64,000 bases of DNA from assembly GCA_051362555.1 (NCBI GenBank), contig CM120647.1, positions 17,584,651 through 17,648,650 on the forward strand. The letters are read 5' to 3'. This document shows, one piece after another, positions 1 to 52,642 of the stretch (its first letter is position 1; each line of letters begins with the position of its first letter). Made by a program: the position numbers and the translations under genes. The stretch comes from Lingula anatina. Its lineage: Eukaryota; Animalia; Brachiopoda. The notes under the pieces are model-generated. The model searched no databases and was not told the origin of the DNA. It saw only the letters and a list, made by a program, of their open reading frames with translations.

Positions 1-16
1 ATTCCTAATTTAACAG

Positions 17-205
17 CATCATGTGGGACTCCCCCAAGTGTGACAGGAGCGACATTTTCACCAGCTGTAGGTCCTTGGGTAGAGGGCGCTGTAGTCACTT
101 ACAGTTGTAACGTTGGTTTAATACAAGCTAATGGTACAAGCACCACTGCTACTTGTACCAATGGTGCTTTTCAATGGGGCACCGGTGGTGCTCTAGTTTG
201 TCAAG
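17..205 (+). CDS. CCP exon 1
   Basis: 189 nt, AG/GT, SCGTPPSV..ALVCQ. Confidence 0.88.
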
Positions 206-3200
206 GTGATTAATCTATTGTTTATTATCTTGGTGAAATAATGGAGTGTTTGATTTAGTATTTTATAAACTCTAATAATTTATTTATAACTCTGCTTGCC
301 AGGGTTGATGAACATTAACTGCTTTGGCTTTGTTTATACATGTACTCATTTGAAGCTTTGAGATGTCACTGACACGTGTTAGTATCACTGACAGGTATTT
401 TACATGGACAATTATTTTTTTTTCTTCTCCTATGAGCCAAAGGAAAAAAAATCACCTATTTTTATATTTATGTAGCATAACTAAGACCAATTGTTCATTT
501 ATCTTAAGCTCCTTGTTCTGCCCCGCCCTCCATCACTGGAGCCTCTTTCTCACCAGCTGTTGGCCCATATCTAGAGGGAGCCACAGTCACATATACATGT
601 ACTGGTGGTCTTGTTCAAGCCAGCGGCACCAGTCGTACAGTGAGATGTACTGGTGGTGCCTTTTTATGGGTAGGAGGGGCTGCACTAACTTGTCAAGGTA
701 AAAAGAATACATGCCAGAAGATATATAATATTTGGATGTAATGGCATGGTTATAAAGGCAGTTAAATTTTCCACATTTGTATTGGATTTATAAACATTAA
801 GAAGGTTAAACTTTTGCTTCATGATGTAACTTAAAATAAATATGTAACCTAGGTGTTGAAAGGGTTCATCAGAAGCTTTTAAATAAAAATCTAGATTTTT
901 TTTCGCGTTTTAGCTGCATTGTTTATATATATAATGTTTACATCACTATTACATGCATTGTATTTTATGTTGAACCAAAAAAAAAAAAGTAATGCATTTT
1001 TATTTATATGTAGCATAATAAAGAAAATTTGTTCATTTACCTTAAGCTACCTGCTCTGCCCCGCCCTCTGTCACTGGAGCCTCTTTCTCACCAACTGTTG
1101 GCCCATATGTAGAGGGAGCTACAGTCACATATACATGTACTGGTGGTCTTGTACAAGCCAGCGGCACCAGTCGTACAGCAAGGTGTACTGGTGGCGCCTT
1201 CTTGTGGGTAGGAGGGACTGCACTGAATTGTCAAGGTAAACAGAATGCAGGCTGGAAGATATGTAATTACCTCTGCTAAGGAGGTTATGTTTTTGGTTCC
1301 GTTAGTTTGTCTGTCTGTCTCTCTGTCTGTTAGCAACATTACAAAAAAGTTATGGACCAATTTTGATGAAATTTTCAGGAACTGTCAGAACTGGGCCAAG
1401 GAACAGATGATTAGTTTTTGGTGGTGATCCGAATCATTAATCAATCAATAATCAATAATCATAAATCAAAAAACTAAATCATTATAGAATGAAAATTTAG
1501 GGGTGAAACGGCATTGGAAGGAGACTTTGCTGCCTTGGCAGAGGTCTGCGCTCTTGGAGTGCTTTTCTAGTATTTATCATGTTTTAGTATGGCTAGTAAA
1601 GTGTAATAGCATATGGTCATAAAGGCAGTTAAATTTTCAACATTTGTATTGGATTTATAAACATTAAGAAGATCAAACTTTTCCTTCATGATGTAACTTA
1701 TATAAGTAATAAAGAAGATGGATCACCCTAAAGAGTAACAATTTTCATTTTTCAGCATCATGTGGGACTCCCCCAAGTGTGACAGGAGCAACATTTTCAC
1801 CAGCTGTAGGTCCCTGGTTAGAGGGTGCTGTAGTCACTTACAGTTGTAACGCTGGTTTAATACAAGCTAATGGTACTAGCACCACTGCTACTTGTACCAA
1901 TGGTGCTTTTCAGTGGGGCACCGGTGGTGCTCTGGTTTGTCAAGGTGATTGATTTTAAATAATCTTAAGCTTAGTATGAAGAGATATATATATCTGCCTA
2001 TGTAAGCTAGAATTTAATTAGGTGCTCTGCATGTAACAAAATACAACTAAATACATGTATATGTACAGGTTTTTTATTAAGTCAAAAAAAATAGATTTAA
2101 AATTTCTAATTTTTAAGGTAAAATTTGTCTTCTTATTTATGAGCTTATGTAATCTTCCAGACTATCAGTACTTAATCATGATTTACAGTAAGCTTTTTTT
2201 TTTATATTTTCAGCTACATGCTCAGCCCCATCCTCCGTCACTGGAGCCTCTTTCTCACCAACTGTTGGCCCATATCTAGAGGGAGCCACAGTCACATATA
2301 CATGTACTGGTGGTCTTGTTCAAGCCAGCGGCACCAGTCGTACAGCGAGGTGTACTGGTGGCGCCTTCTTGTGGGTAGGAGGGGCCGCACTAACTTGTCA
2401 AGGTTGGTAACTTGACAGTAAAGAAATAAGTAGTTAGAAAAGTAATGATCTGTTTTGTGTTCAAATAATGGCAGTGCAAACCTATGGTCTTTGCAGGTAA
2501 ATTTATTTCAGTGTATGTGTAATTGGACAAAAAATAATGCATCAGGGTAGTAGAAAATCAACTAATTTTAAAATTAATTAGTTTTGTCAATTTTGATATC
2601 AATATATTTTTTATACCGTAATTTAATTCTGAGGTGACAGTTACATGCCTTTCTTAAAGAGATTTTACCAATCATTAATTTTCAATTTAAAAAAATCCAT
2701 TTTTCAGCAACCTGTGCAGCAGCTCCTGTGGTTGCTGGGGCAACCCCATCCCCAGCGTCAGGCCCATATGTAGATGGCGCCAGGGTCACATATAGATGTA
2801 ACAGTGGTTTGATCCAAGTCAGTGGTACCAGTAATACTGCTACCTGCACCAATGGGGTATTCCAGTGGGGCACTGGTGGTGCTTTTGTGTGTCAAGGTGA
2901 TTATTCAGAGAATTAATCAGTCGCAAAATATATATTTTTAGACTTTACAATAATGTTGAAAGCAAATTAATTGGGATTTCAAACTTTTTTTAAGCTGTAT
3001 TTTGTAAGTCATTATTTTGACACTTATAGAATAAATAGATGCATATATTTTTAGATATTTTTTCTAAAAAAATATTCACCAACTACTATGCATACATAGC
3101 TCATTCCTTATGAGCTTAAGAGTCTGAACAATTTTTGTAAAATAAACATCCTCACTTTCAGCCACATGTCAGAACCCTCTGGCTGTCAGTGGAGCTACCT

Positions 3201-4002
3201 TCACGCCATCTACAGGACCCTACAGTGAGGGTTCCGTTATCACGTACTCCTGTAATGGAGGCTTCGTCCAGACCAACGGCACCAGTACTACTGCAAGGTG
3301 CACCAATGGCATTTTTGTTTGGGGCACAGGTGGTGCCATCTCTTGTAGAGGTAAGTTGAAAGTTGAGGAACTCCTTCAGTCAGTTTTTCCTTGGATTGAA
3401 TAGCCAAAGCACTGGGACTAGTGTTTGTTCAGTTTTTCTTCTTTCCCTTTTTTTCTTGACTAAATTTGATGGACCAGAAATTGTTCCCAGAATATCTATT
3501 TACTAGTACATTGCAAAGTTGTGTTATGTTATAATGAAGTGTCTATCTTCAGACTGACACTTCAGAAGTTCGCGTGTTTATAAATATGCAGTAAGACAAT
3601 GAAGCTGTGTCATTTTGTGTGAGCGTATGAGTGCGTGAGTATGTGTGTGTGTTTCTGTGTCTGTCAAACAAAAGGTGGTCAAAAACCATTATAATATTTG
3701 TCCCCCCCCCCAGGTATCTGCCCCAGTCCTCCCAGTGTAAACGGAGCAGCTTTCAGTCCCCTGAAGCAACAGTACACAGAGGGCGATGTCCTGACCTATG
3801 TCTGCTCGTCAGGATTCACTCCAACGTCTGGCAGCAATAGAGCCACGTGTACAAACTCTGCCTTTGCTTGGGGTGCTGATGGCGCCCTCTTCTGTGCAGG
3901 TAAGCCGAAGATGATGATGATGATGATGATAACATTTTTACAGCACTTGCTTTTTAACAACTGACTGCTTTATTGTTTCTCTAACATAATCATCATCATC
4001 AT

Positions 4003-4067
<65 letters not shown>

Positions 4068-4447
4068 CAACAACTAATATGGATGAATAGCTACATGAGT
4101 GGAAAAATGTAATTTGCTCTTGTTTTAATAAAAAAGTAACTTTTCAAATTAATGAACCACTTCCAGCCAACTGTCCTAGCCCTCCTACCATTCAGGGAGC
4201 ATCCATTACTACAAATTCAGCAACATTCACTGAGGGAGCAGTTGTTGATTACACGTGTAACTCTCCTGGCTTTGTACAGGTGAACGGCACTAGTTCTCGT
4301 GCCACGTGTTCTAACAGTACCTTTATCTGGGGAGCTGGAGGCCCCATTGAGTGCCAAGGTGTGTTAGAGTATTAGGGTAGTTTAACTTTGACTGAGGAAA
4401 TCCTGGGTATGTGTTTTAAATTGCATATGCTTGCATGTGTGCTTGTT

Positions 4448-4488
<41 letters not shown>

Positions 4489-7400
4489 ATTCATATTAAT
4501 AAACACATGAAACAGAGAGAGAGAGAGGAAAAAAGACTGAGATAGAGTGAGAGAAAGAGATAATTAAAAAAGTGAATTAAAACCATGTGTGTTTTGACAA
4601 TTAATTTAAAAGTAAACTAGTCAAAGCATGAGCTGAAAAAGGTGCATTTGTATGCATAATCAAAATTTTGTCTTGATTATCATATAATTAATACAAAAAC
4701 CTAACTGTAACAGAAGAATAACTTCTTTTTTAATGTGCTATGTAGTTATTAATGCTTTAAGTAACACTTTAAGCAGCATGTAAAATAACTTGATCTCTGT
4801 ACATGAAGTAGTAGCTGGTAATGAATATTTACACATTGTTCCATATAATAACCATATTCAGTGTGGTATTTTAGGACTTATTTCACTTCTTTGGGGCAAG
4901 CTACAAGAAAGAATGAAGCCTCTTCCCTCAGGCCCTTTTATGTGACTTTTTTTTGATTAATTTTAACATGATATGGTTCAGACAGTGCAATATAATATTT
5001 ATAAACTATTAAATTTTTGTGCCGCAGCAACTTGCTTGACAGCGCCAGTGGTTGCCGGGGCCACCGTCACCCCGGCACAAGGGTCTTATGTCGAGGGAAG
5101 TGTACTGACATATGCCTGTAACAGCAACTACCGACAGGTCACCGGAACCAGCACCACCGCTAGATGCACCAATGGTGTCTTTGTCTGGGGAACTGGTGGT
5201 GCCACCAGGTGTCAAGGTACGGGATTACACTCTTTGCTTTTTCCTTTTTATTTCAATATCTGATTGTCTGTAATTATAACTTTTTGGTGATTCTTCATTT
5301 TAGGTAGTGCAAACGCCATTTTCATTAAGGCCACTGTCTGTTTTTTTACCACTAGATATTATAATCATGCTATAATTTCTTTTAGCTGAAATGTTTTTAC
5401 ATTATCATGATTTTTTTAGCTTTATGTCAGAGCCCACCAGAGGTGGTTAATGCAGGGTTTGTCACTCAGGCCTCAGGACCTTTCATAGAGGGCGACACTG
5501 TGACATACGCTTGCACCACTGGGTTTGTCCAGACCAGTGGCTCGGCTTCGGTCAGATGCACTAATGGCACATTTGACTGGGGTGTGGTCGGGAGCATGGT
5601 GTGCCAAGGTTAACATTGATTTTGAATTATCTTTAAATTTTAATTTTTTTTTCTCATGTGATTACTTACTAATGCCTGTCTGTGGTCATGCATATTAAAA
5701 TGTTTAGAAGTATTGAGCTTTTTAACCTAATGGTTGCAATAAAATGTTCATGCTTAATTTTGTTATTATTACAAACTATATTAACCCAGAAAGATGTTAA
5801 ACTTGAATTAATCACAAGTTGCATTAAATGATTTAAAACTGAAAAACAATAACAGCAGCCTACAAAAGAACATAAAGCAGCCTAAAATAGCTCATAAAAA
5901 ATGCATGCGATCCAAAGTAACAAATATTATATCAACATTTCCAGCATCATGTAATAGTATCCCAGAAGTCCAAGGGGCGAGTTTTAATTCGTCTGCAGCT
6001 TCGCCCTATGTCAGTGGAGATGTACTGACCTACAGTTGTAATACTGGTTATATACAAACAAGTGGGAGTTTGACTGCACAGTGTCAGAATGGAAGTTTTG
6101 TATGGGGTATAGATGGCGCTCTTGTCTGTCAAGGTGGGCTTTAACATTGTGGCTTTTTCTGACTTGCTTTATATTGCTGTAGTTTAAAGATAATGATAAG
6201 AAAAAATGACAAGATCTGTGTGGCACTGACATGCGATAAATTTATAATGTTGTTTGTTTTAACAAAAAATGTGTAAGCATTATTAACATGTCATGTACAA
6301 GAGCTTTTTGTGTGTTAACACTTGCCTGCAAATGTGTAACTAAAATATGTTATATTTCATAACACAATTATATATCTTTATTCTTTTAATGTGGTATATA
6401 AGAATGAAAAATATGACACATGACAACTGCTTATGAACTAGTCACTGTTAAAAAGACATGCTGTCTTGTTGCAGCAGTCCAAGCCCTGGTCATTGTGGTA
6501 GTTGTGATTGCATTAGGTTTGATTGTGCAGGGTTGTGATTGCCCTACATGCAATTGTGCTAGGTGTGATTATGCTGGTTGTGATTGTGTTGGTTGTGATT
6601 CTGTAAAATAATTGTGTTAGGTTGTGATTGCACAAGCTGTAATTGAATTGTGGGTGATTGTGTGGGGTGTGATTATTCTTAATCACTATTGCACAAATTG
6701 TGCCTATTTTAGCCACCTGTGCCCAGGGTCCTCCGACCGTCCAGGGAGCCTCTTTCAATCCGGCCACTGGTCCATACCTGGAGGACAGTGTGGTCAGATA
6801 CGCCTGTCAGTCTGGCAATACTCAGACAGGGGGCAGCACTGCAGCCAGATGTAGAAATGGTGTGTTCACCTGGGATGCACCTGGAGTTTTGAACTGTACA
6901 GGTGAGTAGGTACAGAGCTGTCAGCGTGACATTAACATGACTGTGCTTCAACAGTTCATAGCTTAAGAAAGTATGATAATGCTTTGTCGCAAGGAGAGGT
7001 TTATTTGTTAATATTTGCTGTGTCATTGTAGGTATTAGGAAGTTTATATACATTTAATGCACATATTTCTTAAATTGTGAAAAGCTTTTTTTATTGAATT
7101 TATAAGGACAATATTTTTGTTTAAATTACAAAGTTTGTGTCTCATCTTGCCTCAGTATCCTGCACAGTGCCACCTACTGTCCAGAGAGCAGACTTCTCAC
7201 CTGATCAGGGCCCATACCTAGATGGCACCGCAGTCACCTACGCTTGCTCAGGAAGCAGTGTCAGGACCTCTGGCAGTGATGTGGCAACGTGTCAAGATGG
7301 GAATTACGTCTGGGGATCTGGAGGGGCACTTGTTTGTGAAGGTACAGTGGGGTACCGCCGGGTGCAAAAATCTGAACGAATTTTTTTCATCTCAACCTCT

Positions 7401-27851: not shown

Positions 27852-27898
<47 letters not shown>

Positions 27899-30800: not shown

Positions 30801-32965
30801 TTCTTTTTACAGAGGGATGCAGTGGAAATCCACCAAAGATTCCCAATGGCAATGTGTTCAGCAGTGTGCCGCCATATTTGGAGGGTGCACAAGCAACTTA
30901 CTTTTGTAACAGTGGCTTTGTGGTGGCCAGTGGAGACATAACACTGCGATGCACAGATGGTAGATTTACAGGAACCATTCCTCAATGTAGACGTAAGTGT
31001 CTCTAATAGAACTTGGATTTTTTTTAAATAACCAAATGAAAATGTCAAATTGTATGTTCGAAAAAATATTTTTTTTAACTAGCAGACAATGTTTAAGGTA
31101 TTTATGAAAAATTAGATGTGAATGTTTTCTTTCAATAGTCTCAAAAATAATTTAGTCTTTGACAGAATAAAATAAAAACTCATTAATATCACACTCCTCA
31201 TTTTATTACCTGTAGCCACAAATTTAATCTATTTTATGCCATATTAATAAATTAAGAAATTATTTCACATTGATTTCAGCTGGCTGCCTACAGGCACCAC
31301 CCACAATACCCAACACAGAGCAGAGTGGTTCTGGACCCCCGTACCTAGAGGGCACCTTGACATTCTACACCTGTGCCACGGGGTACATTAAGGTCCAGGG
31401 AGATGACCGACTGACCTGTAGAAATGGACAGTATGTGGGAGCTCCACTGATATGCGAATGTGAGTACAGTATTTATTCTGAAGTTTCAGATACCAAGTAT
31501 TTCATTCTTTTTAGGATTTAAAGTCATGAAGTTTATTACTCACACAGTTGTAATTTCTAATAGTTTGAACCAATTTCAGTTTTTTTTCTTAAAATATCAA
31601 ATCTCCATTTTTGGGTATAGTTCAGCTAATACAAAAAATGTATTATATTATCAGTGTTAAACATGTTTGATGGGCAATAATTTATATGATGTGTGATTTG
31701 ATTAAGTTTGATACTGTCCATATGAAATCCATCCTTAAGAATATAATTTTTAAGGTTGCTTAAAATTGATAATTACATTTCAATTGTTGATTGAGATATG
31801 ATCTCTTCTTCCAGCTGGGTGCCCCGCCCCTCCACAGGTAAACAATGCGGAGGTGGCCCTCCCCCCAGGGGGTCTATACCAGGGCACTGTGGTGACGTAT
31901 TACTGCAGTGATAACTATGTACAGACTGGAGGAAGTAAGACACTGCGCTGTGAGAGAGGAAACTGGACAGGACAGAGAATTCAGTGTAGTTGTAAGTGTG
32001 AATAAGTATTCATGCATATGTGGGGATGGCTAATAGCAATTAAAATACTGTTCTAAGTTTGGCATTGTGATGTTGAATTGGAATTAACATTAAAATGTGT
32101 GTGCAGATTCATGTAGCATTTATTTTTGCAAATAAATATGAGTTCATATTGATATTAAAAAAAGTCTAAATTATATTATTTTATATATGACAGTTCATGA
32201 TTATTGTTATTTTCTATAGCTGGCTGTGCTGGTTCCCCAGAGGTGGTTCCTAATGCAGAATTTACCACAACTTCATCTGAACCTTACCTAGAGGCTGCCG
32301 TCTTGACCTACTCCTGTGTCAGTGGCACTGCTAAGATTGGCGGAGCTGAGCAACTTGTCTGCCGCAGTGGAAAATTTACGTGGAATCAAGGGGGCGCTCT
32401 AGTGTGCCAGGGTATGGATTGATTGCTTTGTTTTGATTATCACACAAGCACATCCAAACACAATTATATCCAATCCAAACACAATCATTCCTAGACATCA
32501 TGGCACAGCTAACACAATTACATTCCTGGTACAACTAATACGGTAATCAGATGACTTTGAAAAATGGTGTTTTATTATAGAAAGATTCAAGATATATGTG
32601 CAATCAAGCTAGAATTCTGAATTATCAATATGATGATCATTCATGTCCATGAAGATGACTTCTAAGCTGCATTTATTAGTCAGATGTGAAATATGTCAAC
32701 TGCAAAGATAATGAAAATAAGTCATCCTCAAAATTTAAAAACATTGTATCTTATTACAGCTGGTTGCCAGGGAGCACCTCCCACCATACCACGTGCTACT
32801 CACAATGGCGCAGGTGGTCCATACCTACAGGGTACAGCAATTACGTACACATGCAACAGTGGATTTGTTGCAAATGGCGGCAGTCGCACTCTGACTTGTC
32901 GAGGAACAACTTTCCAGGGAGAGCCTTTACAGTGTGCAGGTGATGAGATATTTTGTATGTTCTTT

Positions 32966-32999
<34 letters not shown>

Positions 33000-44900: not shown

Positions 44901-47900
44901 GCGATGATACTGAGCTGACATGTAGAAATAGACAGTGGGTCGGCACTCTTATACAGTGTGCAGGTATTAAGTTTCATCTTTTTGAATGATTTTTTTAAAT
45001 GTGTGTCTTGGTATGTGGTTTGAGGTTCCTTTGGTTACATTTGCATGGTCCCATATCTTTATGCAAATCTCTTTTGATGGATGGATTAGGAATTACTCAA
45101 CAAAGTATTTAAACAGGACACATAACCTCCCCAAAAACAAAGTGTTCCTCTATTGTTAAAAGATGCACTGGTGACTGTTTAACTTACGGATACCATATCT
45201 TGGTCTAAATGTGACCACCAAACAAAGTTTGGTCTGATACCTCCCTTAACAACACAATTGTATTTTCATTTATTTATTTATTTATTTATTTATTTCCAGC
45301 TGGCTGCGTGGTGACCCCTCCCAATGTGGTCAATGCGGTGTTCACCGTACCCTCCTCTCCCTACGTGGAGGGTATGAGGGCCAACTACACCTGTACTGAT
45401 GGCTATTACAGGGCCAGTGGAAGCTACAACTTACTCTGTTCTGGTGGCTCTTGGGTAGGACAGAGGATAGTGTGTCAGCGTAAGTACTGCCCTGTCCTTG
45501 GGTCAGATATAGCAGGTTTCAGTGATAATGCTATGTAAGTCAGTCAGTTATGTTTTACATTAGTAAAGTTTTAAACTCTTATTGCAGTCCAATTGATGAT
45601 GATGCATCTCTCTCAGACTTCCTCTGAGATGGACTGAAATATCTGGGAGAGAGAGAGAAAGAGAAAGAGAGATACAAAAATGTCTATTAAACAAAATCTA
45701 AGCCTATTTATAATATGTTAAAGATAATTATTTAGTCAATTAAGTTATTCAAGCAATACAGTCAGTGAAAGTAAAAAAAAAAATCTATTTTCAATGTACT
45801 GTATCACTGAGTGTCATGGTGTCCAAGTGATTGTGTTAATGTTGTGGTTGTAACAAATACAGCTCCATCAATATACTTGGGAAACATCAATAAATTATGC
45901 CTCGTACATGTACATGTATCTGCCTTACATGTGGATGAATCTTGCTGTAACGCATTATTGAAATTTCTTGATTCCATCATTTAATCTGAAGTAAAATTAT
46001 TTCAGCTGGTTGTAAAGATGCCCCCAGCATCCAACACACCTTCAGAACTGGAGATGGTCCCTATAACAATGGCTACTCTGTCAGCTACACATGTCAGGCA
46101 GGATTCATTGAGACACATGGCTCTAGAGTGCTGACATGTCAGAATGGAATCTGGATGGGAGAGCTGCTGGTCTGCCAGGGTGAGTGGGATTGTGTTAGTT
46201 GTGACATTGTCAAGGGTAATTGTTGGGTGAGATACTGTTCTGCCAGGATGATTTCGACATTGTGGTATGTGTGATTTCTTGTGTTAGTTGAGATGTTTCT
46301 CTCAGGGTTGGTATTTTAAAAGTTTGTTCTCTATGGTTATGTGGTATTTTGTCACCTTTGGTAGTTTTAATGTAAAGTGTTGAGTACTTCTTTGTTTTGA
46401 AGAATGATGTTGCTTTGTAAGACATGGCTTTTTTCCATGAATGTTTATTTTAGCCAAGTATTTACTTACTACATAATCAGCTGAAAATTGGTTGTTTGAT
46501 TTGGTCTGAATTGAATTTCAAGAGATGATGATGTTAACTATTAAGTATAATGTAATGTTTTTTTTCTGTTTTAATTAAATTTTGATAAATGTTTAATCAT
46601 ATTTTGTTAACTTTCAGCTGGGTGCTCAGGTCCTCCCCCTACCATTGCAAACACTGTGTTAGTGTCAGTGTCCACGCCATATGTAGAGACCACTATCGCC
46701 ACCTATAGGTGTGCTTCTGGATACCAAAGGAGTAGGGGCAGCTTCACATTGGTCTGTAGGAACAGCAACTGGCAGGGGGCACTGTTACAATGCACAGGTA
46801 ACTGAGAAATTCAATATAGATTGATGACTGATTATAAAACATACTTCTTTTCCTTGTTTCTAATGTGGTTAGCAGTTTTATAAAATGAGATATGATATTA
46901 AGAAGGATTTGTGCCATTATGGTGTCAATTTCCTTCAAACTTAAAGCTGCATTTTAATCCAACATATGTTGTCTAGATATTTTCATCATTCAGACTTTTG
47001 TATTGTTATGAATGATTAGTATCATTTATTTATGTTTATTATTTTTATAATCTATTAAAAGGCGCAGACACAGACAGTTGCAGTGAGCCCCCCTTTGTCA
47101 CTGGAGCAACCAATGATGCCACTGGTGCCCCCTATGCACAGGGTCAGCTTGTGCGCTATTCCTGCACTACTGGAAATATACCAGTAGGTGGCGCTGAGGT
47201 GTTGCGGTGCCAATCTGGTGCATGGGTGGGAGAAATTCTACAGTGCCAAGGTAATTTAGTCCTTTTCCAAATATTATTTTTTGGATGGGTCCTTTGGCTT
47301 ATATCACAAAGCCACTTTATATCAAGGTTGTAAGGGCATTAATATTGTGAGTACATAAAATCTCATGAAATAGGTCCAAGGGGATGGTATCACTGAAGTG
47401 TTTTAGACCAAAATTTAGTCTTAATTTATTGGAATGACAAAAGATTTATTTACTTTGGATTGTAAAAACAATATGTGCAGTTGTCAACTTAAATGGTGCT
47501 GAATATTGTTCTTAAACAGTAACTGTAGTGCTTGATTCGTCAGAAAAGCCAAGTGCAGTGCTCCATTTCAATAATCAAATTTCTTTCTCAGCGGGATGTG
47601 CCGAGCCACCACCTTTCATCTTCGGTGCCACATATGTTGGGGCACCAATCATTGGGATGACAGGACCACAGGGGTCCACCGGCCCCCAGGGACTCCCTCC
47701 TCCGCCCTATGTCACCCAGGGGACTCAGATCCAGTATACGTGTGACGTGAGAAGGGTCCAGACTGGAGGATCCAGTGTGCTTACCTGTAACAATGGGAAC
47801 TATGTGGGAGAGAGGATACGCTGTGAACGTGAGTGGGAGTTCTGGATTTCTTCAATCTTGTTGTACTTTGAGAAGAAAATCCTTTGGATTTATGTGGCAA

Positions 47901-50900
47901 TTTTGGTGTGGTATTTAAGCCTTGTAGATCCCCAATATAGACTTTGAGCCTCTTTGAAGCTTGCATTTTCACTTTGTTTCAAAGTTCACTTTTGTTTTAC
48001 TTCTATATCAGTGTTGAATTATTTTAAATTGTTCTTCAAAGATATTTTCCTGTTATTCTTCATCAGACATCTTTTTTTTTTTATTTTGCTCTTTTGTTTG
48101 TCTGTCAGTCTGCATCTGACTCTGTCTGAAGGTCTCTCTGTGTTCTCACATAATCACAGGATAGTGCCTAGATGATGGTTGTGGTTCAGTTGAGATAATA
48201 ATATAGTACATGTATGACATGCCTTCAAAAAGACTTGGTCAAAAACTTGATAAGGTAAAGGAGACTGTTAGCAGTATAAATTCCAGGATTGCAATTGTCT
48301 TGCTGCTTCTAAAAGTATTATGCTTTGATTTATCATACTGTCAAATAACATCAAATATAATGTAATCAGATTTGCTTAGGTGAGCGTATTTATTTTGATA
48401 TATAATATACCATTAATACATTTCAGTTGGATGTAGTGGTACTCCACCATCAATAGGGTTTGCCATCCATGATGGTAGTGCCCCCTATAGGGAGGGAGAT
48501 GTTATTACATACAGCTGTGTTGAGGGAGCGCGTCAAGTAGGTGGCAGTAACTCTCTGACCTGCCTCCAGGGGGCATTCCAGGGCACAAGGATCATTTGTC
48601 AAAGTAAGTTAAAAATTTTAAACACTTCTTTTTGTTCTTATGTTACTTTTTTAGAATTTATCATGTTAAGCCATCCATGAAAACAAATAACAAACAAAAT
48701 TCATGAAAATTATTCTTTTATATTTTCCAGGAAATGTAACCCCAAGCAATCAGTGTTCAGTGCCACCTACAATTATGTTTGCTCAACACAATGGAGTTGG
48801 AACTTTATTCACAGATGGCGCTGTTATCACATACAGTTGTGTTTCATCCTATGTCCAGATAGGTGGAGATGCAGAGTTGACCTGCAGGAATAGACAGTGG
48901 GTGGGAAGCCGTATTCAGTGCACACGTATGTGTTCATTATTGCCCTGCCTGATTTAGGAGCAGTAGATTATTTTCAATATTTAAGTTGACAAAGGGGTTT
49001 ATAATCTGTACATCATTAAGATGGGTTTTGATTTTGTTTATATGACACTGCTTGTAAATGTTAAACAGAATTTCAAGAAAGAAAAAAATATAAAATTTCT
49101 TGTTGTTAATTGTAGTCATTTTCATTCTTATTTATTAACATATTTTTTGTTTATTTTCTTTTGTGTATCTTTACATCGTTTGTTTATTATGTATTTGCAT
49201 ATATTTGTCTGTTTATTTATTTATTTATTTATTTATTTATTCAAATATTATTATTTTCTTTTGTGTTTCTTTACACCATTTGTTTATTTATTACATATTT
49301 GCATATATTTGTCTGTTTATTTATTTATTTATCCATTATTTATCCAATGTTTCCAGTTGGCTGTGTAATGGCACCCCCAGAAATCATGAATGCAGTGTAC
49401 ACCATAGAGCAGGCACCCTATGTGGATGGTATGAGAGCAGTGTACTCCTGTAGTGAAGGCTTCTACAGGGTCAGTGGGAACTTCAACTTGATGTGCTCTG
49501 GAGGCTCTTGGACTGGTCAGAGAATAGTGTGTCAGCGTAAGTTTTTAGTACCAGATTAGTATTATAATTTTAGGGTCTTTAAGTCAAAGTGCTCTTTAAG
49601 AAATTATTATGAATCGCTTAAAATGCAGTTTATCATAATAAAATACTTTTGAGTTCAAAGATCAGGGATGAGATTTGTCCAACTATTTCCAATATTTAGA
49701 GGCCAAACAAGGTATTTCTGAGATCAGTGGGGGTTTGCCATAAAAACGGGGAGAGGGGTATGTCTGGCCTCCATGTAATATTTTTAGACCTTTTCACTAA
49801 ATGTCAGTCTCATCACTGGCTCACCAATGTCAATATTTGATTACAGCTGGCTGTAAAGAGGCCCCCAGCATCCAACACACCGTCAGAACTGGAGATGGTC
49901 CCTATAACAATGGCTACTCTGTCAGCTACACATGTCAGGCAGGATTCATTGAGACACATGGATCTAGAGTGCTGACATGTGAAAATGGAATCTGGATGGG
50001 AGAGCTGCTGGTCTGCCAAGGTGAGTGGGATTGTGTTAGTTTGGGTGAGATAATGGTCTGCTAGGGTGAGTGGGATTGTGTTAGGTGTGACATTGCCAGG
50101 GTTTTTGTGTTGGGTGAGATACTGGTCAGTCAGGAAAGGTCAAGTATGAATTCTTGGAACTGCATTCTCATCATTGCTTTGGATTGGAATAAGCTTGCAT
50201 GTATTTGGAAAAATATTATTTAGCTCTTGAAATTTGGTTCATTGATGTTGCAACTTTAGCCTGTTTCCTTTCTTAATTAACAATATATGAACACAATTTT
50301 GCTGGAGACTGTGTTTAAATATAATCAAAAGATACACATAGATCCGACTATGTCCTCTGTTAGTATACAGAATAGCCGCAGGATGAAAATGCATTGATTT
50401 CTGTTGAAATTTCAGATGGTTGCTTACAACACCCACCAACCCTGCCCAATGCTATATTATCATCTGTGTCCACTCCATATGTAGAGACTACTATCGCCAC
50501 CTATAGGTGTGCTCCAGGGTATCAAAGAACTGCCGGCAGTTACATGTTAGTCTGCATGAATAAAAACTGGCTAGGAGCACCTCTGCAATGCTCAGGTAAA
50601 TATGTGTATCATTTTTGTAAAAAATCAGTTTCTCTATGCATTTCCCAAAAGTCATAAATTCAAAACTCTTTTTCAGAAACCTTTAAGCTCCTAAGCTGAC
50701 CCAAATTATATATGGCATAAAACCTTAATCAGACTTTGATGCAAAATGGACTTTTTCTGACCAAGAGAGCAGTCCTTTTTTTTTAATTCCCTTGAACCAC
50801 ACTGATTGTGGGCCTGTAACAGTAATAACTGAGGGCATGCCAAAGCACTATTTATAATAAACATATGCAGGTCAATGTAGTAGTCTACTGACTTTTTGCA

Positions 50901-52642
50901 TCTTTCTCATTTGACATACCACTAAAACCTTTGAGGTATCAAATACATTGTGTATATGTCGAGCACATTTCTAGTATCTGGTATGTCCTTAAGGTGTCAT
51001 ATGTTTGTATGTGAATATGTGGAACACATTTCTAGTATGCGACTTCATCTTTTCAGCTCTTGGAAGTGTCCAGGGTGTAGGAGTCATAGGTGGCAACACT
51101 TTGTCCCCCTTTCTGAATTTCCCAAGCTTCACAAGGCAGCCTCTGGCATTCCCAGTCACAGAGAGCCCACTCACTGTGGGGACCACTGTGGGGAGAAGCT
51201 CCACGGGGGCGGGGGCAGGTGGCACAGGTGGAGGAACGACTGGAACTGGTTCTGGAACTGTAGGATCTGGTTCTGGTACTGTTGGATCTGGTACATCAGG
51301 CTCAGGAACAATTGGATCCAGTTCTGGTGGAGTTGGTTCTGGTTCTGGAATGGCAGGATCTGGAAGTGGATCTGGAAGTGTTACTGTGATTGGACCTGGT
51401 TCAGGCTCAGTTGGAATTGGCATTGGTTCATCAGGAGGCGGAGCTGGTACAGGAGGAAGTGGAGGTAATTTGGGTGGGACAACCATCATTGGAGGAACAG
51501 GAGGTAGTTCAAGTGGGACAACCATTATTGGAGGAAGTGGAGGTAGTTTGGGTGGGACAACCATCATTGGAGGAACTGGAGGTAGTTCGGGTGGCACAAC
51601 CATCATTGGAGGAACTGGAGGTAGTTCAGGTGGGACAACCATCATTAGAGGAACTGGAGGTAGTTCGGGTGGGACAACCATCATTGGAGGAACTGGAGGT
51701 AGTTCGGGTGGCACAACCATCATTGGAGGAACTGGAGGTAGTTCAGGTGGGACAACCATCATTGGAGGAACTGGAGGTAGTTCGGGTGGGACAACAATTA
51801 TTGGAGGAACTGGTGAAACTGGCCACTGGCATGTCTACAATGTAAACACAGGTGTTCTTGGTCCACTGCCTGGTCAAACAGATGGGCACTGGCATCTAAA
51901 TGGAGGTACTGGCCAGACCACTGGTCAGTCACAAGGACAGGCCTCCAGTACAGGACACTGGCATGTGTACAACTACAACAACCCTCCTACTTCAAACAGT
52001 GGGGCCTTCAATACTGGGATCCCTGCATTTAATTATGGATCACAATATGGTGGCAGCGGTGGGTCGGGCACCTTAGCCTCAGGCACAGGTGGCACTGGTT
52101 ACATCTTGGTTGGTACCCCAGGAAATCAAAGGTGGGTGCTGTCGGGCAGTGTGGGTGGAACTGGAGGGTATAATTACTACAGCAGCACTGGCACAGTGAA
52201 TGGTGGTTACATTGGTGGCACAGGAACTATAAGAATCTACCACAATGGACCTGATGTGGTTCTTGGCAGCACCTCAGCAGGAGACACTGTGAACAGTGAA
52301 ACTGGCACGAGAAATGATGGCACCACAGGAAGTGGTTCCAATGAAGGAGGAAGCACCACAGGAGGAAGTGGTTCCTCTGGTTTTCAAAGCAGCACAGGAG
52401 TTGTGAGCCCAGGAATGATCGGTTTCCGCCCAAGCGGTGGGACAGACCAACCCACTCCAGGTGGAACACAGGGCGAAACTGGCTCAAGTAACTCTAAGCT
52501 GGCCAATAGTATAATAGGTCAAAGTTCATTAAGTGCATTTGGTGTGTTCCCTGGGATGTCCCCCTCTGTCTGGCCAGGGGGGTCAAGTGGTCCAAGGTCA
52601 AGGGTCAGCAGGTCGACAGAGACTGAGGTGTCACAGGACTAG
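17..52642 (+). CDS. Giant multi-CCP/Sushi-domain protein, 5'-partial: 90 single-domain exons plus Gly/Ser/Thr-rich terminal exon (about 6,090 aa in window)
   Basis: 90 exons flanked by AG/GT, all lengths multiples of 3, all phase 1-1, each reading C-x(2-3)-PP...Y-x-C-xx-G-[YF]...G...C-xx-G-x-[WFY]...C. Consecutive junction codons never form a stop. Terminal exon ends at TAG 52640-52642. Confidence 0.9.
509..697 (+). CDS. CCP exon 2
   Basis: 189 nt, AAG acceptor, PCSAPPSI..ALTCQ. Confidence 0.87.
1047..1235 (+). CDS. CCP exon 3
   Basis: 189 nt, AAG acceptor, TCSAPPSV..ALNCQ. Confidence 0.87.
1267..1571 (+). mobile_element. Non-autonomous Helentron-type element (HINE/DINE-1-like)
   Basis: Subterminal inverted repeat ACCTCTGCTAAGG 1269-1281 / CCTTGGCAGAGGT 1533-1545, (TGTC)n microsatellite, 3' hairpin and CTAG end; absent from the paralogous intron after exon 2. 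Confidence 0.8.
1756..1944 (+). CDS. CCP exon 4
   Basis: 189 nt, near copy of exon 1. Confidence 0.88.
2214..2402 (+). CDS. CCP exon 5
   Basis: 189 nt, TCSAPSSV..ALTCQ. Confidence 0.87.
2708..2896 (+). CDS. CCP exon 6
   Basis: 189 nt, TCAAAPVV..AFVCQ. Confidence 0.88.
3162..3350 (+). CDS. CCP exon 7
   Basis: 189 nt, TCQNPLAV..AISCR. Confidence 0.9.
3714..3899 (+). CDS. CCP exon 8
   Basis: 186 nt, ICPSPPSV..ALFCA. Confidence 0.9.
4004..4075. repeat. (AAT)n/(AAC)n microsatellite
   Basis: Direct read. Confidence 0.95.
4167..4358 (+). CDS. CCP exon 9
   Basis: 192 nt, NCPSPPTI..PIECQ. Confidence 0.88.
4453..4487. repeat. (TG)n microsatellite
   Basis: Direct read. Confidence 0.95.
5028..5216 (+). 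CDS. CCP exon 10
   Basis: 189 nt, TCLTAPVV..ATRCQ. Confidence 0.88.
5420..5608 (+). CDS. CCP exon 11
   Basis: 189 nt, LCQSPPEV..SMVCQ. Confidence 0.87.
5945..6133 (+). CDS. CCP exon 12
   Basis: 189 nt, SCNSIPEV..ALVCQ. Confidence 0.88.
6495..6675. repeat. Degenerate minisatellite of (ATTGTGNTAGGTTGTG)-like units
   Basis: Repeated GTTGTGATT / ATTGTGTTAGG words. Confidence 0.7.
6713..6901 (+). CDS. CCP exon 13
   Basis: 189 nt, TCAQGPPTV..VLNCT. Confidence 0.9.
7156..7341 (+). CDS. CCP exon 14
   Basis: 186 nt, SCTVPPTV..ALVCE. Confidence 0.88.
7563..7748 (+). CDS. CCP exon 15
   Basis: 186 nt, GCPGDTPNV..PIICQ. Confidence 0.9.
8163..8351 (+). CDS. CCP exon 16
   Basis: 189 nt, SCASGPPIV..SLVCT. 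Confidence 0.9.
8380..8475. repeat. 22-bp minisatellite x4 (CACATCTAACACAATCTAGGGT)
   Basis: Units at 8380, 8402, 8424, 8446. Confidence 0.92.
8899..9087 (+). CDS. CCP exon 17
   Basis: 189 nt, GCPLSPPTV..AISCE. Confidence 0.9.
9353..9538 (+). CDS. CCP exon 18
   Basis: 186 nt, GCAERPPNV..ALVCS. Confidence 0.9.
9933..10118 (+). CDS. CCP exon 19
   Basis: 186 nt, GCSDPPKNV..TIVCQ. Confidence 0.9.
10607..10792 (+). CDS. CCP exon 20
   Basis: 186 nt, GCANSPRSI..AIVCE. Confidence 0.9.
11047..11232 (+). CDS. CCP exon 21
   Basis: 186 nt, GCADSPPSV..AIVCK. Confidence 0.9.
11492..11677 (+). CDS. CCP exon 22
   Basis: 186 nt, GCANSPPSI..TIVCE. Confidence 0.9.
11859..12044 (+). CDS. CCP exon 23
   Basis: 186 nt, GCANSPPSV..AIVCE. 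Confidence 0.9.
12312..12497 (+). CDS. CCP exon 24
   Basis: 186 nt, GCANSPPSV..TIVCK. Confidence 0.9.
12880..13065 (+). CDS. CCP exon 25
   Basis: 186 nt, GCADSPPSV..TVVCE. Confidence 0.9.
13398..13580. mobile_element. Degenerate MITE-like remnant
   Basis: Imperfect inverted repeat GGTAATTACTCACA.. / ..TGTGAGTATTTACC. Confidence 0.4.
13689..13874 (+). CDS. CCP exon 26
   Basis: 186 nt, AAG acceptor, GCPQHPPNV..TIVCE. Confidence 0.87.
14375..14563 (+). CDS. CCP exon 27
   Basis: 189 nt, GCIIAPPTV..AISCE. Confidence 0.9.
14864..15049 (+). CDS. CCP exon 28
   Basis: 186 nt, GCADRPPSV..ALVCQ. Confidence 0.88.
15803..15991 (+). CDS. CCP exon 29
   Basis: 189 nt, GCSISPPSV..AISCE. Confidence 0.9.
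16273..16458 (+). CDS. CCP exon 30
   Basis: 186 nt, GCRNMPPNI..AIVCE. Confidence 0.9.
16776..19121 (+). mobile_element. Non-autonomous Helentron-type element (HINE) carrying a satellite array
   Basis: TTGTACCACCAGC 16776-16788 perfectly complementary to GCTGGTGGTACAA 19072-19084; 5' hairpin, (CCGCCGGCT)n, 3' hairpin GAGGCG-gtat-CGCCTC, CTAGTT end. Confidence 0.82.
17791..18917. repeat. 146-bp tandem satellite, about 7.7 copies
   Basis: TATCTCCAAAACTGGC recurs at 17791, 17937, 18083, 18229, 18375, 18521, 18667 and (degenerate) about 18813. Confidence 0.95.
19227..19415 (+). CDS. CCP exon 31
   Basis: 189 nt, GCQGTPPTV..AISCE. Confidence 0.9.
19837..20025 (+). CDS. CCP exon 32
   Basis: 189 nt, GCENPPSSM..PIRCQ. 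Confidence 0.9.
20379..20567 (+). CDS. CCP exon 33
   Basis: 189 nt, GCQGNPPTV..AISCE. Confidence 0.9.
20789..20928. repeat. 42-bp minisatellite x3.3 containing CACATCTAACACAAT
   Basis: Units at 20789, 20831, 20873, 20915. Confidence 0.92.
20973..21158 (+). CDS. CCP exon 34
   Basis: 186 nt, GCAGAPPNA..AIVCQ. Confidence 0.9.
21654..21830 (+). CDS. CCP exon 35
   Basis: 177 nt, GCGTPPQI..RLQCQ. Confidence 0.9.
22130..22296. mobile_element. Degenerate MITE (CAGGGG..GGAT termini)
   Basis: CAGGGGTGGATTTAG / CTGGATCCGCCTCTG imperfect TIRs. Confidence 0.55.
22399..22587 (+). CDS. CCP exon 36
   Basis: 189 nt, GCAQGAPTV..ALVCE. Confidence 0.9.
22857..23042 (+). CDS. CCP exon 37
   Basis: 186 nt, A-rich (weak) acceptor, GCSGEPQRV..PIACQ. 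Confidence 0.86.
23021..23166 (+). repeat. 51-bp tandem triplication of the exon 37 3' end and donor
   Basis: GAAGGACCA..GCTTGTCAG at 23021, 23072, 23123. Confidence 0.88.
23365..23553 (+). CDS. CCP exon 38
   Basis: 189 nt, GCKNGPVEV..QIKCE. Confidence 0.9.
23658..23755. repeat. 20-bp inverted repeat (small MITE or hairpin)
   Basis: AACAGATTAACACTCCTCCT / AGGAGGAGTGTTAATTTGTT, 1 mismatch. Confidence 0.7.
24083..24268 (+). CDS. CCP exon 39
   Basis: 186 nt, GCFSPPPV..PLRCQ. Confidence 0.9.
24664..24849 (+). CDS. CCP exon 40
   Basis: 186 nt, GCPGQPPEI..PIVCQ. Confidence 0.9.
25222..25392 (+). repeat. About 60-bp tandem triplication of the exon 41 branch point/acceptor
   Basis: TCACA(T/A)CTAAC..CT(A/G)GTTG(C/T)(A/G)CAGGC units at 25225, 25288, 25348. 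Confidence 0.75.
25379..25567 (+). CDS. CCP exon 41
   Basis: 189 nt, GCAGSPPVV..ALRCA. Confidence 0.9.
25745..25936 (+). CDS. CCP exon 42
   Basis: 192 nt, GCGGTPPSV..VLQCS. Confidence 0.9.
26163..26339 (+). CDS. CCP exon 43
   Basis: 177 nt, GCPPPPQI..RIACA. Confidence 0.9.
26757..26936 (+). CDS. CCP exon 44
   Basis: 180 nt, GCSEDPPST..PLTCE. Confidence 0.9.
27302..27481 (+). CDS. CCP exon 45
   Basis: 180 nt, GCQQNPPAL..YIQCQ. Confidence 0.9.
27676..27849 (+). CDS. CCP exon 46
   Basis: 174 nt, ACPTPPSN..PLVCN. Confidence 0.9.
27853..28065. repeat. Compound (TG)n/(GA)n microsatellite
   Basis: Direct read. Confidence 0.95.
28387..28563 (+). CDS. CCP exon 47
   Basis: 177 nt, GCTTPPSI..RMTCG. 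Confidence 0.9.
28928..29107 (+). CDS. CCP exon 48
   Basis: 180 nt, GCTSDPVAP..RLTCS. Confidence 0.9.
29427..29606 (+). CDS. CCP exon 49
   Basis: 180 nt, GCLSPPPSI..RIQCQ. Confidence 0.9.
29941..30117 (+). CDS. CCP exon 50
   Basis: 177 nt, GCTTIPNI..QIVCI. Confidence 0.9.
30450..30638 (+). CDS. CCP exon 51 (extended linker)
   Basis: 189 nt, ATVSCSTEPP..RIVCA. Confidence 0.87.
30813..30992 (+). CDS. CCP exon 52
   Basis: 180 nt, GCSGNPPKI..IPQCR. Confidence 0.9.
31280..31459 (+). CDS. CCP exon 53
   Basis: 180 nt, GCLQAPPTI..PLICE. Confidence 0.9.
31815..31991 (+). CDS. CCP exon 54
   Basis: 177 nt, GCPAPPQV..RIQCS. Confidence 0.9.
32220..32411 (+). CDS. CCP exon 55
   Basis: 192 nt, GCAGSPEVV..ALVCQ. 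Confidence 0.9.
32760..32939 (+). CDS. CCP exon 56
   Basis: 180 nt, GCQGAPPTI..PLQCA. Confidence 0.88.
32969..32997. repeat. (GA)n microsatellite
   Basis: Direct read. Confidence 0.95.
33187..33366 (+). CDS. CCP exon 57
   Basis: 180 nt, GCESQPPSV..RLNCQ. Confidence 0.9.
33615..33800 (+). CDS. CCP exon 58
   Basis: 186 nt, GCSQSLPEV..ELQCR. Confidence 0.9.
34208..34384 (+). CDS. CCP exon 59
   Basis: 177 nt, GCTEVPTI..NIVCE. Confidence 0.9.
34717..34905 (+). CDS. CCP exon 60 (extended linker)
   Basis: 189 nt, EKIECIREPP..RIQCA. Confidence 0.87.
35144..35323 (+). CDS. CCP exon 61
   Basis: 180 nt, GCKEAPSV..PLVCR. Confidence 0.9.
35645..35824 (+). CDS. CCP exon 62
   Basis: 180 nt, GCSGTPPTP..ALVCE. 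Confidence 0.9.
36162..36341 (+). CDS. CCP exon 63
   Basis: 180 nt, GCSGSPPSV..RIRCQ. Confidence 0.88.
36737..36925 (+). CDS. CCP exon 64
   Basis: 189 nt, GCPNQPPQI..SIRCQ. Confidence 0.9.
36928..37200. repeat. 17-bp minisatellite (GTGTGTTAGGTGTGACA) interleaved with copies of the exon 64 3' end
   Basis: Direct read; exon-end copies near 36978 and 37125. Confidence 0.88.
37494..37676 (+). CDS. CCP exon 65
   Basis: 183 nt, GCSDSPPSI..RLVCQ. Confidence 0.9.
37889..38068 (+). CDS. CCP exon 66
   Basis: 180 nt, GCDNEPPSI..RLQCR. Confidence 0.9.
38385..38627 (+). CDS. CCP exon 67 with Gly-X-Y insert
   Basis: 243 nt, GCSQNPPFI..GSTGPQGSSGPLGPV..RIKCE. Confidence 0.9.
38916..39092 (+). CDS. CCP exon 68
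   Basis: 177 nt, GCVSAPVI..RLQCE. Confidence 0.9.
39336..39524 (+). CDS. CCP exon 69 (extended linker)
   Basis: 189 nt, KIVGCYQEPP..NIVCR. Confidence 0.9.
39820..39999 (+). CDS. CCP exon 70
   Basis: 180 nt, GCPSNPPDA..LIQCQ. Confidence 0.88.
40309..40482 (+). CDS. CCP exon 71
   Basis: 174 nt, GCGNPPSI..RIVCE. Confidence 0.88.
40772..40951 (+). CDS. CCP exon 72
   Basis: 180 nt, GCLGNPPEV..VIDCR. Confidence 0.88.
41303..41485 (+). CDS. CCP exon 73
   Basis: 183 nt, GCAGSPPTI..RLQCD. Confidence 0.9.
41757..41939 (+). CDS. CCP exon 74
   Basis: 183 nt, GCLQQPPSV..SMVCR. Confidence 0.9.
42331..42513 (+). CDS. CCP exon 75
   Basis: 183 nt, GCSASPPVV..LIICA. Confidence 0.9.
42845..43024 (+). CDS. 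CCP exon 76
   Basis: 180 nt, GCTEAPPIV..HLECE. Confidence 0.88.
43344..43523 (+). CDS. CCP exon 77
   Basis: 180 nt, GCAEMPPDV..RIVCQ. Confidence 0.9.
43917..44096 (+). CDS. CCP exon 78
   Basis: 180 nt, GCLQSPPTI..RIVCA. Confidence 0.9.
44382..44558 (+). CDS. CCP exon 79
   Basis: 177 nt, AAG acceptor, GCTGAPPSL..RIVCT. Confidence 0.86.
44769..44963 (+). CDS. CCP exon 80 (extended linker)
   Basis: 195 nt, DTIPTNTCSMPP..LIQCA. Confidence 0.88.
45300..45479 (+). CDS. CCP exon 81
   Basis: 180 nt, GCVVTPPNV..RIVCQ. Confidence 0.9.
46006..46179 (+). CDS. CCP exon 82
   Basis: 174 nt, GCKDAPSI..LLVCQ. Confidence 0.9.
46618..46797 (+). CDS. CCP exon 83
   Basis: 180 nt, GCSGPPPTI..LLQCT. Confidence 0.9.
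47062..47250 (+). CDS. CCP exon 84 (acceptor ambiguous: 47062/47068/47074)
   Basis: 189 nt from first AG, ADTDSCSEPP..ILQCQ. Confidence 0.8.
47592..47828 (+). CDS. CCP exon 85 with Gly-X-Y insert
   Basis: 237 nt, GCAEPPPFI..GMTGPQGSTGPQGLP..RIRCE. Confidence 0.9.
48427..48603 (+). CDS. CCP exon 86
   Basis: 177 nt, GCSGTPPSI..RIICQ. Confidence 0.9.
48731..48925 (+). CDS. CCP exon 87 (extended linker)
   Basis: 195 nt, NVTPSNQCSVPP..RIQCT. Confidence 0.88.
49125..49340. repeat. (TTTA)n-rich low-complexity duplication
   Basis: Direct read. Confidence 0.8.
49357..49536 (+). CDS. CCP exon 88
   Basis: 180 nt, GCVMAPPEI..RIVCQ. Confidence 0.9.
49847..50020 (+). CDS. CCP exon 89
   Basis: 174 nt, GCKEAPSI..LLVCQ. 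Confidence 0.9.
50416..50595 (+). CDS. CCP exon 90
   Basis: 180 nt, GCLQHPPTL..PLQCS. Confidence 0.9.
51057..52642 (+). CDS. Terminal exon: about 528-aa Gly/Ser/Thr-rich low-complexity tail
   Basis: TTTTCAG acceptor at 51056, phase 1 matching exon 90, open to TAG 52642 (same frame as ORF 51005..52642). Confidence 0.88.
51473..51814 (+). repeat. Coding tandem repeat, 39-bp unit x about 9 (GGTTIIGGTGGSS)
   Basis: Units start at 51473 + 39n up to 51785. Confidence 0.95.

Follow-up and report, generated by a model that had tools for sequence, protein, structure and literature searches.

Tandem CCP (sushi) modules, each 3.5–4 nm long, make up factor H, CR1 and C4BP, with CR1 having 30 of them. 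According to the available text of one survey, complement regulators carry basic residues across the linker between CCP1 and CCP2 (motif M3), and regulator-like motif patterns are reported from many invertebrate phyla (PMC6683126). For factor H, the accessible parts of two structural studies describe a rigid, rod-like junction at the 3-residue linker between modules 19 and 20 and a flexible one at the 6-residue linker between modules 18 and 19 (PMC4068365, PMC3289644). Outside complement, LEV-9 of Caenorhabditis elegans (8 CCPs and a WAP domain, activated via C-terminal cleavage) and Hasp of Drosophila (up to 17 CCPs and a WAP domain) are secreted extracellular scaffolds, with no repeat tail described for either in the excerpt of PMC9083331. 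SVEP1/polydom ends in three EGF repeats, as stated in the available portion of PMC12549020.

The gene described here is intact, and its 3' part, comprising at least 90 CCP exons and an end exon rich in Gly, Ser and Thr, lies in a 64,000-nucleotide stretch of DNA (the window). Within the window its product resembles factor H, CR1 and C4BP in being a pure tandem array of the same fold and shares with factor H 19–20 the same minimal 3-residue linker, but it has at least three times the module count of CR1 and differs from the complement regulators in having no basic linkers, in its low module similarity and in the absence of a membrane anchor from the window. It also resembles SVEP1, a secreted matrix protein with a long CCP tail, but the gene ends in a Cys-free exon with no EGF repeats and no Pfam match. 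Identity with SVEP1 was therefore excluded.

Mussel byssal preCols, in which a rod carries Gly-rich flanks and His-rich ends, and Lustrin A of abalone nacre, which has a Gly/Ser block, are analogues in design only, as no relation in sequence or fold has been shown and their rods are not built from CCP modules. Lustrin A is described as a long matrix protein of repetitive sequence, containing Cys repeats as well as disordered stretches (PMC6003135), and skeletal matrix proteomes are reported to include sushi domains (PMC7853314, PMC6003135).

Anatomy of the array and its terminal exon

A strict exon pattern (AG, an open phase-1 frame with exactly four Cys at CCP spacing, then GT) occurred 90 times on the + strand of the window, not once on the − strand and not once in each of eight block-shuffled windows, and a chance pattern was thus rejected. 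The 90 exons are intact, all phase-1 and all on the + strand between positions 17 and 50595 (Table 1), and they amount to 16,695 nt, or 5,565 codons, with 360 Cys at exactly four per exon. A first exon pattern (phase-1, four Cys) had yielded 88 groups, two of them false; an HMM built from the 86 true exons gave 94 matches over six frames, of which 90 scored above 10 bits and the weak remainder at most 2 bits, and the only new strong matches were four long exons absent from the first set. GT donors are present at all 90 exons and the acceptors are CAG, TAG and AAG in 68, 17 and 5 cases, respectively, with a median intron of 332 nt in the array. Joined to the terminal exon, the 90 exons form a single frame of 6,092 codons with one stop; we infer the join between exon 90 and the tail from phase and position.

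Table 1. Exon blocks of the CCP array and features of the terminal exon, in window coordinates.
Feature	Position	Strand	Character	Individual exons
CCP exons 1–17	17–9087	+	Cys3–Cys4 spacing of 14 residues, Trp always present; recent duplicates 1/4 and 2/3/5	17-205, 509-697, 1047-1235, 1756-1944, 2214-2402, 2708-2896, 3162-3350, 3714-3899, 4167-4358, 5028-5216, 5420-5608, 5945-6133, 6713-6901, 7156-7341, 7563-7748, 8163-8351, 8899-9087
CCP exons 18–30	9353–16458	+	Acidic, N-glycosylation sequon-rich: the 13 modules together have a net charge of −45 and 18 sequons	9353-9538, 9933-10118, 10607-10792, 11047-11232, 11492-11677, 11859-12044, 12312-12497, 12880-13065, 13689-13874, 14375-14563, 14864-15049, 15803-15991, 16273-16458
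CCP exons 31–42	19227–25936	+		19227-19415, 19837-20025, 20379-20567, 20973-21158, 21654-21830, 22399-22587, 22857-23042, 23365-23553, 24083-24268, 24664-24849, 25379-25567, 25745-25936
CCP exons 43–66	26163–38068	+	Mostly short type (Cys3–Cys4 spacing of 11 residues); 10 of 24 have Trp; modules 50 and 59 are followed by longer linkers	26163-26339, 26757-26936, 27302-27481, 27676-27849, 28387-28563, 28928-29107, 29427-29606, 29941-30117, 30450-30638, 30813-30992, 31280-31459, 31815-31991, 32220-32411, 32760-32939, 33187-33366, 33615-33800, 34208-34384, 34717-34905, 35144-35323, 35645-35824, 36162-36341, 36737-36925, 37494-37676, 37889-38068
CCP exons 67–90	38385–50595	+	Block 79–83 duplicated as 86–90; longer linkers after modules 68, 79, 83 and 86	38385-38627, 38916-39092, 39336-39524, 39820-39999, 40309-40482, 40772-40951, 41303-41485, 41757-41939, 42331-42513, 42845-43024, 43344-43523, 43917-44096, 44382-44558, 44769-44963, 45300-45479, 46006-46179, 46618-46797, 47062-47250, 47592-47828, 48427-48603, 48731-48925, 49357-49536, 49847-50020, 50416-50595
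Terminal coding exon	51057–52642	+	527 residues; stop at 52640–52642	
13-residue (39-nt) tandem repeat	51452–51813	+	9.3 copies, 91% matches	
Three GHWH motifs	51821–51964	+	Tail residues 255, 276 and 299; follow the repeat	

An earlier note on this DNA had counted 90 one-domain exons of about 5,565 aa with four Cys each, and both the strict pattern and the HMM return exactly these counts. Its statements that no pseudo-exon is present and that no other domain type is interspersed are borne out as well, as none of the former was found in the six-frame HMM scan of the window and no other open phase-1 exon with strong splice sites was found in the 90 introns. Nor was a convincing start, signal or stop exon found in any array intron, where two weak signal-like candidates, one of them microsatellite-derived, were seen. 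A short partial re-copy of the end of exon 64 was noted in intron 64: in the stretch 36883–37126, which spans the exon end and part of the intron, a 95-bp duplication has placed the exon end and its donor beside a 17-bp tandem repeat, which also attracts RNA reads from elsewhere.

An assembly artefact was rejected because the closest exon pairs differ (dS 0.10–0.25) and long self-matches are just 74–90% identical, the intron satellite and the tail repeat excepted. Exon 1 starts at base 17, directly after an acceptor and with no start or signal exon before it, which makes it plausible that the array would extend past the 5' edge of the window. No upstream splice join into exon 1 was present among the RNA joints listed for 1–19900, and metagenome scans for DNA upstream of the window found nothing.

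The assignment of the modules to the CCP (sushi) type is supported by several lines of evidence. Pfam Sushi (PF00084) matched 87 of the 90 at E ≤ 0.1 and 70 at the gathering score of 20.7 bits, with no match for exons 38, 77 and 85, and all 90 scored 57–93 bits against the array's own profile. Cys spacing is standard in 88 modules and interrupted by a loop insert in the other two, and 14 residues separate Cys2 from Cys3 in 79 of the 90. Between Cys3 and Cys4, 65 modules have the canonical Trp; the remaining 25, all within modules 44–86, have Phe or Tyr. Exon 66, the one module of 90 that was modelled, reached a pLDDT of 96.4 in AlphaFold2 when 83 of the 90 modules were aligned as input, and the Foldseek rows listed for this model were complement-type CCP proteins and IL-15 receptor alpha at TMq 0.67–0.83; the best E was 7.5e-3 and none was ≤0.001, which is not unexpected for a query of 59 residues. 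Against solved structures, the module profile matched 113 CCP-protein sequences, with factor H, CR1 and CR2 at the head of the list. Two of the checks proposed in the earlier note, a Pfam Sushi scan and modelling of the fold (of module pairs in the note, of a single module here), both favoured the assignment.

Mean pairwise identity between modules is 38%, and the array has grown by tandem exon duplication. In addition to the recent duplicates given in Table 1, exons 20–24 (84–92% mutual identity) and exons 27, 29 and 31 form such groups. Cys3–Cys4 spacing is mostly 13–14 residues in modules 1–42 and mostly 11 in modules 43–90. Linkers, counted from the last Cys of one module to the first Cys of the next, were said to be mostly of 3 residues and are so in 83 of 89; the other six, all after module 50, have 6, 6, 6, 7, 9 and 9 residues, and Gly is the final residue in 68 of the 83 short ones. 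In a tree of 223 modules (90 from the window and 133 sampled from 13 relatives; 60 columns), most forks were unresolved, but the window label required 6 changes compared with 70 when shuffled, and a single clade of window modules was not rejected (p-AU 0.708), which would allow a single expansion. In exons 67 (38385–38627) and 85 (47592–47828) the Cys1–Cys2 interval is longer by about 20 residues and includes four to five collagen-like Gly-X-Y triplets, too short alone for a triple helix.

The tail encoded by the terminal exon consists of 31% Gly, 16% Ser and 14% Thr (61% together) and has no Cys. Its best 19-residue hydropathy is 0.97, its end is hydrophilic and no membrane segment or GPI-type end was found in it, in agreement with its previous description as a Gly-rich, non-membrane tail. 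No matches to the tail were obtained in Pfam, in a sequence search among proteins of near length, in the Atlas or among PDB sequences. A single-sequence model had a mean pLDDT of 41, with residues ~140–250 reaching 56–73 and forming one short strand per 13-residue repeat. Its best structural matches were beta-rolls, namely a ryegrass ice-binding protein (Z 9.4, rmsd 8.1 Å, 105 aligned) and trimeric autotransporter heads of the YadA-head type (Z 8–9, rmsd about 8 Å), the second-best match overall having Z 8.8 and rmsd 8.6 Å; all are near the background of the tool, and Foldseek returned nothing at E ≤ 0.001. The 13-residue repeat is predicted, with moderate confidence, to be a beta-solenoid (beta-roll). 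Metal binding by the GHWH motifs is a guess from their sequence, and from the model we infer a possible self-associating beta-roll with a metal clasp at the tail. Past the stop, the first AATAAA-type signals are at 53960 and 54374, and further dispersed repeats at 53633–53864 attract many reads with unrelated flanks.

Constraint, transcription and relatives

Across 16 pairs of duplicate exons dN/dS was 0.11–0.35, and it was 0.25 when pooled over 13. The duplicated exons are under purifying selection and, with open frames throughout, a dead array was rejected. Nine RNA runs were taken by species label, of which eight were mapped, four on 34000–53900 and four on 1–19900; none carried tissue labels. 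Depth was very low, about 0–5 in exon bins in all eight runs, and the deep bins are dispersed repeats. In the stranded runs X1, X2, X3 and X6, exon-only bins in both the 5' and 3' parts were covered by − strand first mates, and transcription was assigned to the + strand because such mates mean + strand RNA in most libraries. Reads also cover the terminal exon and extend beyond the stop. The gene is thus intact, constrained and weakly transcribed.

Two exon–exon joints among those listed, both GT–AG and each with 8 reads from 2 runs, bear on splicing. The first (48603>48731) joins exon 86 to exon 87; the second (45479>49847) joins exon 81 to exon 89 and skips exons 82–88, or seven modules. The latter may be a mis-mapped 81–82 joint, given the 95% identity of exons 82 and 89, or it may reflect a shorter allele or isoform. 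The neighbours of these two exons are 64–69% identical, and the identity of 82 and 89 suggests recent gene conversion or an allele that would have no copy of the seven modules. Among the joints listed, none was found between exons in 1–19900 or from exon 90 to the tail, and no read or contig from the two mapped regions spans a full-length transcript; one full-length mRNA is nonetheless likely. Of the 40 read differences listed among 190 in 34000–53900, 23 fall in exons. Among those listed, 6 of 7 in CCP exons are synonymous, and those in the tail are divided equally, 8 of 16 changing a residue and 8 of 16 synonymous.

When 1.84 billion representatives were searched with the profile, 5,326 matched. 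No orthologue was found among 30 clusters looked up from the best 150, and the joined chain is about 30% identical to its best relative. When the module alignment was used against proteins of 141–2000 aa, four generic CCP proteins were returned. The earlier note did not recognise a named gene, and indeed no named orthologue was present in the collections searched. No account of the gene, or of a CCP chain of similar size, was found in the literature, most subscription journals lying outside that search.

Among the matches looked up, the closest short-linker CCP proteins were XP_078687101, XP_066295027 and XP_066289674 of Branchiostoma (the last of which we take to be from this genus), XP_013405295 and XP_013405348 of Lingula anatina, H2Y8B7 of Ciona savignyi, and XP_053396463, which is presumably from Mercenaria. 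Mean bits per module were 41–51 for the three amphioxus proteins, 42 for C. savignyi, 38–40 for the two Lingula proteins and 30 for XP_053396463, compared with 13.5–21.6 for factor H-like, CR1-like, SVEP1-like and other long chains. The best single modules of these relatives are 39–53% identical to window modules, but their whole chains reach about 30% at best, and they are therefore not orthologues; their database names (SVEP1-like or selectin-like) are automatic. The 3-residue linkers are common to the Lingula, Ciona and XP_053396463 proteins and the window chain, and the Lingula proteins and XP_053396463 also share the 14-residue Cys2–Cys3 spacing. The relatives differ in having 7–35 modules each and no Gly-rich repeat tail; in addition, the amphioxus modules have additional Cys, and XP_053396463 (34–35 CCPs) ends in a membrane segment. 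The two Lingula proteins, the nearest relatives that combine 3-residue linkers with an intact start, have a hydrophobic start that by eye is signal-like, and their Thr-rich, low-complexity tails are free of membrane segments. Extra N-terminal parts amount to ~135–220 residues in the Lingula proteins and ~300 in XP_053396463, the latter with LDLa-like Cys spacing (by eye). Together these proteins point to a short-linker CCP subfamily, so far unstudied, that spans amphioxus, brachiopods, tunicates and a bivalve.

Long CCP arrays in invertebrates do not appear to be rare among predicted sequences. P0078 (ENA record, 4,739 aa) has ~79 CCPs, Styela clava XP_077970683 (3,714 aa) has 59 and P0017 (3,321 aa) has ~55, and the SVEP1-like invertebrate proteins XP_070563038 (which we assume to be from Ptychodera) and KAK3796936 have 47–48. 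The P0078, Styela and P0017 arrays are uninterrupted, like the window chain, but have mostly 4-residue linkers, a 13-residue Cys2–Cys3 spacing, ~13–15 bits per module and no Gly-rich tail; the Styela protein has a signal-like start and no membrane end. P0078 appears as one very long frame on a 54-kb contig and is probably part of a larger gene. SVEP1-type modules likewise have 4-residue linkers and a 13-residue Cys2–Cys3 spacing (XP_070563038), as against 3 residues (83 of 89) and 14 residues (79 of 90) here. With 90 modules the window chain has the highest count among the 211 proteins compared, by a modest margin. The lead in size is narrower than the earlier note had suggested: CR1 and SVEP1, with which it compared the chain, are the wrong ceiling, as predicted invertebrate chains reach 47, 59 and 79.

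A candidate extracellular strut and its alternatives

The reading that we favour, and to which we give about an even chance, is a lineage-specific extracellular structural strut or spacer of more than 6,000 residues that is likely secreted. All exons would be joined in one mRNA, and a signal peptide, presumably encoded upstream with the N-terminus outside the window, would export the protein. Two disulfides per module and the 3-residue linkers would hold neighbours end to end and, at 3.5–4 nm per module, give a contour length of ~315–360 nm. By analogy with factor H 19–20 and 18–19, the chain would be extended at most junctions and hinged at the six longer linkers, which lie in the C-terminal half, and the acidic, sequon-rich modules 18–30 would form a glycosylated segment. 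A beta-roll formed by the 13-residue repeat would, together with the three GHWH motifs, provide a self-associating or metal-bridged end that would fasten chains to each other or to matrix, the rest of the tail being disordered. The product would be a semi-flexible, non-stretching strut in extracellular matrix or a secretion.

A stiff rod of more than 300 nm had been proposed earlier. The rod-like 3-residue linker of factor H 19–20, in the portions of the two studies available (PMC4068365, PMC3289644), speaks for stiffness, but the six longer linkers and the Gly that ends 68 of 83 short ones speak against it. A semi-flexible chain is likelier because tilts would add over 90 junctions, the linkers are Gly-rich and six are longer. 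The comparison with titin fits the length and not the mechanics, as disulfide-locked modules should not unfold under load in the manner of titin Ig domains; any stretch would sit in the tail. A more elaborate version, in which the longest CCP chain is also a block-built fibre precursor, with a non-stretching strut of >300 nm, a glycosylated middle block, hinges near one end and a beta-roll/His–metal clasp that would bundle or cross-link chains into an animal glue, a mucus net or a sheath, sushi modules thus being used as bulk building material, is unlikely. Low RNA depth, in runs with no tissue labels, counts against a bulk mucus or glue role because such a protein should abound in its gland.

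It is unlikely that the array is instead a long stalk, either bearing a recognition head (such as a lectin, vWA or CUB domain) encoded beyond the window at the N-terminus or hanging from a membrane anchor there, with a role in cell adhesion or immune recognition and not as bulk material. The N-terminus lies beyond the window, where other domains or a membrane anchor could be encoded, and the extra N-terminal parts of the Lingula proteins (~135–220 residues) and XP_053396463 (~300) would fit such a head, as would the low expression of a receptor-like product and two RGD triplets in modules 61 and 72 (no chance control). These points are countered by the absence of a membrane or GPI end from the window, by a 527-residue repeat tail that a stalk would not need and by a module number of 90, far above the 14–35 of relatives.

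Production of the 90-module chain seldom or never, with exon skipping, length alleles or internal polyadenylation leading to shorter products, is quite unlikely. All exons are symmetric (phase 1-1) and any could be skipped in frame, one observed joint skips seven of them, and AATAAA is found in 34 of 89 introns, as would be expected in AT-rich introns (no control). However, no convincing start, signal or stop exon is present in the introns, the joint between neighbouring exons 86 and 87 was observed, and mis-mapping would be a simple explanation of the long skip.

A scaffold of the Hasp or LEV-9 kind, present at low abundance around cells or at synapses, processed by cleavage and clustering receptors via CCP contacts, is very unlikely, as a chain of >300 nm far exceeds the width of the synaptic cleft, the 6,092 residues contain no R-x-K/R-R furin site, and the names Hasp and LEV-9 were absent from the 30 clusters looked up among the best 150 matches. 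It would find support in low expression and in LEV-9 and Hasp themselves, secreted CCP chains with such a role, LEV-9 being cleaved C-terminally according to the available text of PMC9083331. Regulation of complement in the fluid phase, by what would be a factor H or CR1 of unusual size, is highly improbable, in line with the earlier note. In its favour, the chain is purely CCP within the window, factor H, CR1 and CR2 are its strongest matches among solved structures, and regulator-like motif patterns are reported from many phyla of invertebrates (PMC6683126). Against it, the structural matches mirror the set of CCPs whose structures have been determined, factor H-like and CR1-like proteins score 15.8–21.6 bits per module against 38–51 for amphioxus, Lingula and C. 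savignyi, and two or more Lys/Arg occur in 1 of 89 linkers (a crude stand-in for motif M3), compared with the basic linker expected of a regulator from the available text of the same source.

If made at full length, the favoured strut would be longer than any other CCP chain examined (at least 90 modules, compared with 79 and 59), and CCP modules, known mainly from complement and synapses, would be used as a ruler-like structural element. Judged from sequence, the gene remains a case of extreme architecture rather than of a new mechanism, its length being extreme and its tail unmatched. The array would offer a clean test of 3-residue linkers as determinants of stiffness in long module chains, and it is a readable record of growth via exon duplication.

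Repeats and neighbouring sequence

Most of intron 30, the largest intron, is a high-copy dispersed repeat (16775–19121) with RNA depths of hundreds to over 1000 and many unrelated flanks. It contains a perfect 14-bp inverted repeat (16775–16788/19072–19085) and, internally, 9-bp and 146-bp tandem arrays; on the 3' side a hairpin precedes CTAG, and to us the repeat looks like a non-autonomous Helentron-type element. A shorter high-copy repeat in intron 3 (1344–1571) also ends in CTAG, and reads run from it into unrelated flanks.

Downstream of the array, a 338-codon open frame (60602–61618, + strand) showed a weak Nal1_C match of 24.4 bits (cut-off 26.1). It had no sequence matches, but its Atlas look-alikes (0.98) were eukaryotic hypothetical proteins and trypsin-like clusters, and it is probably an exon of an unrelated Nal1/trypsin-like gene.
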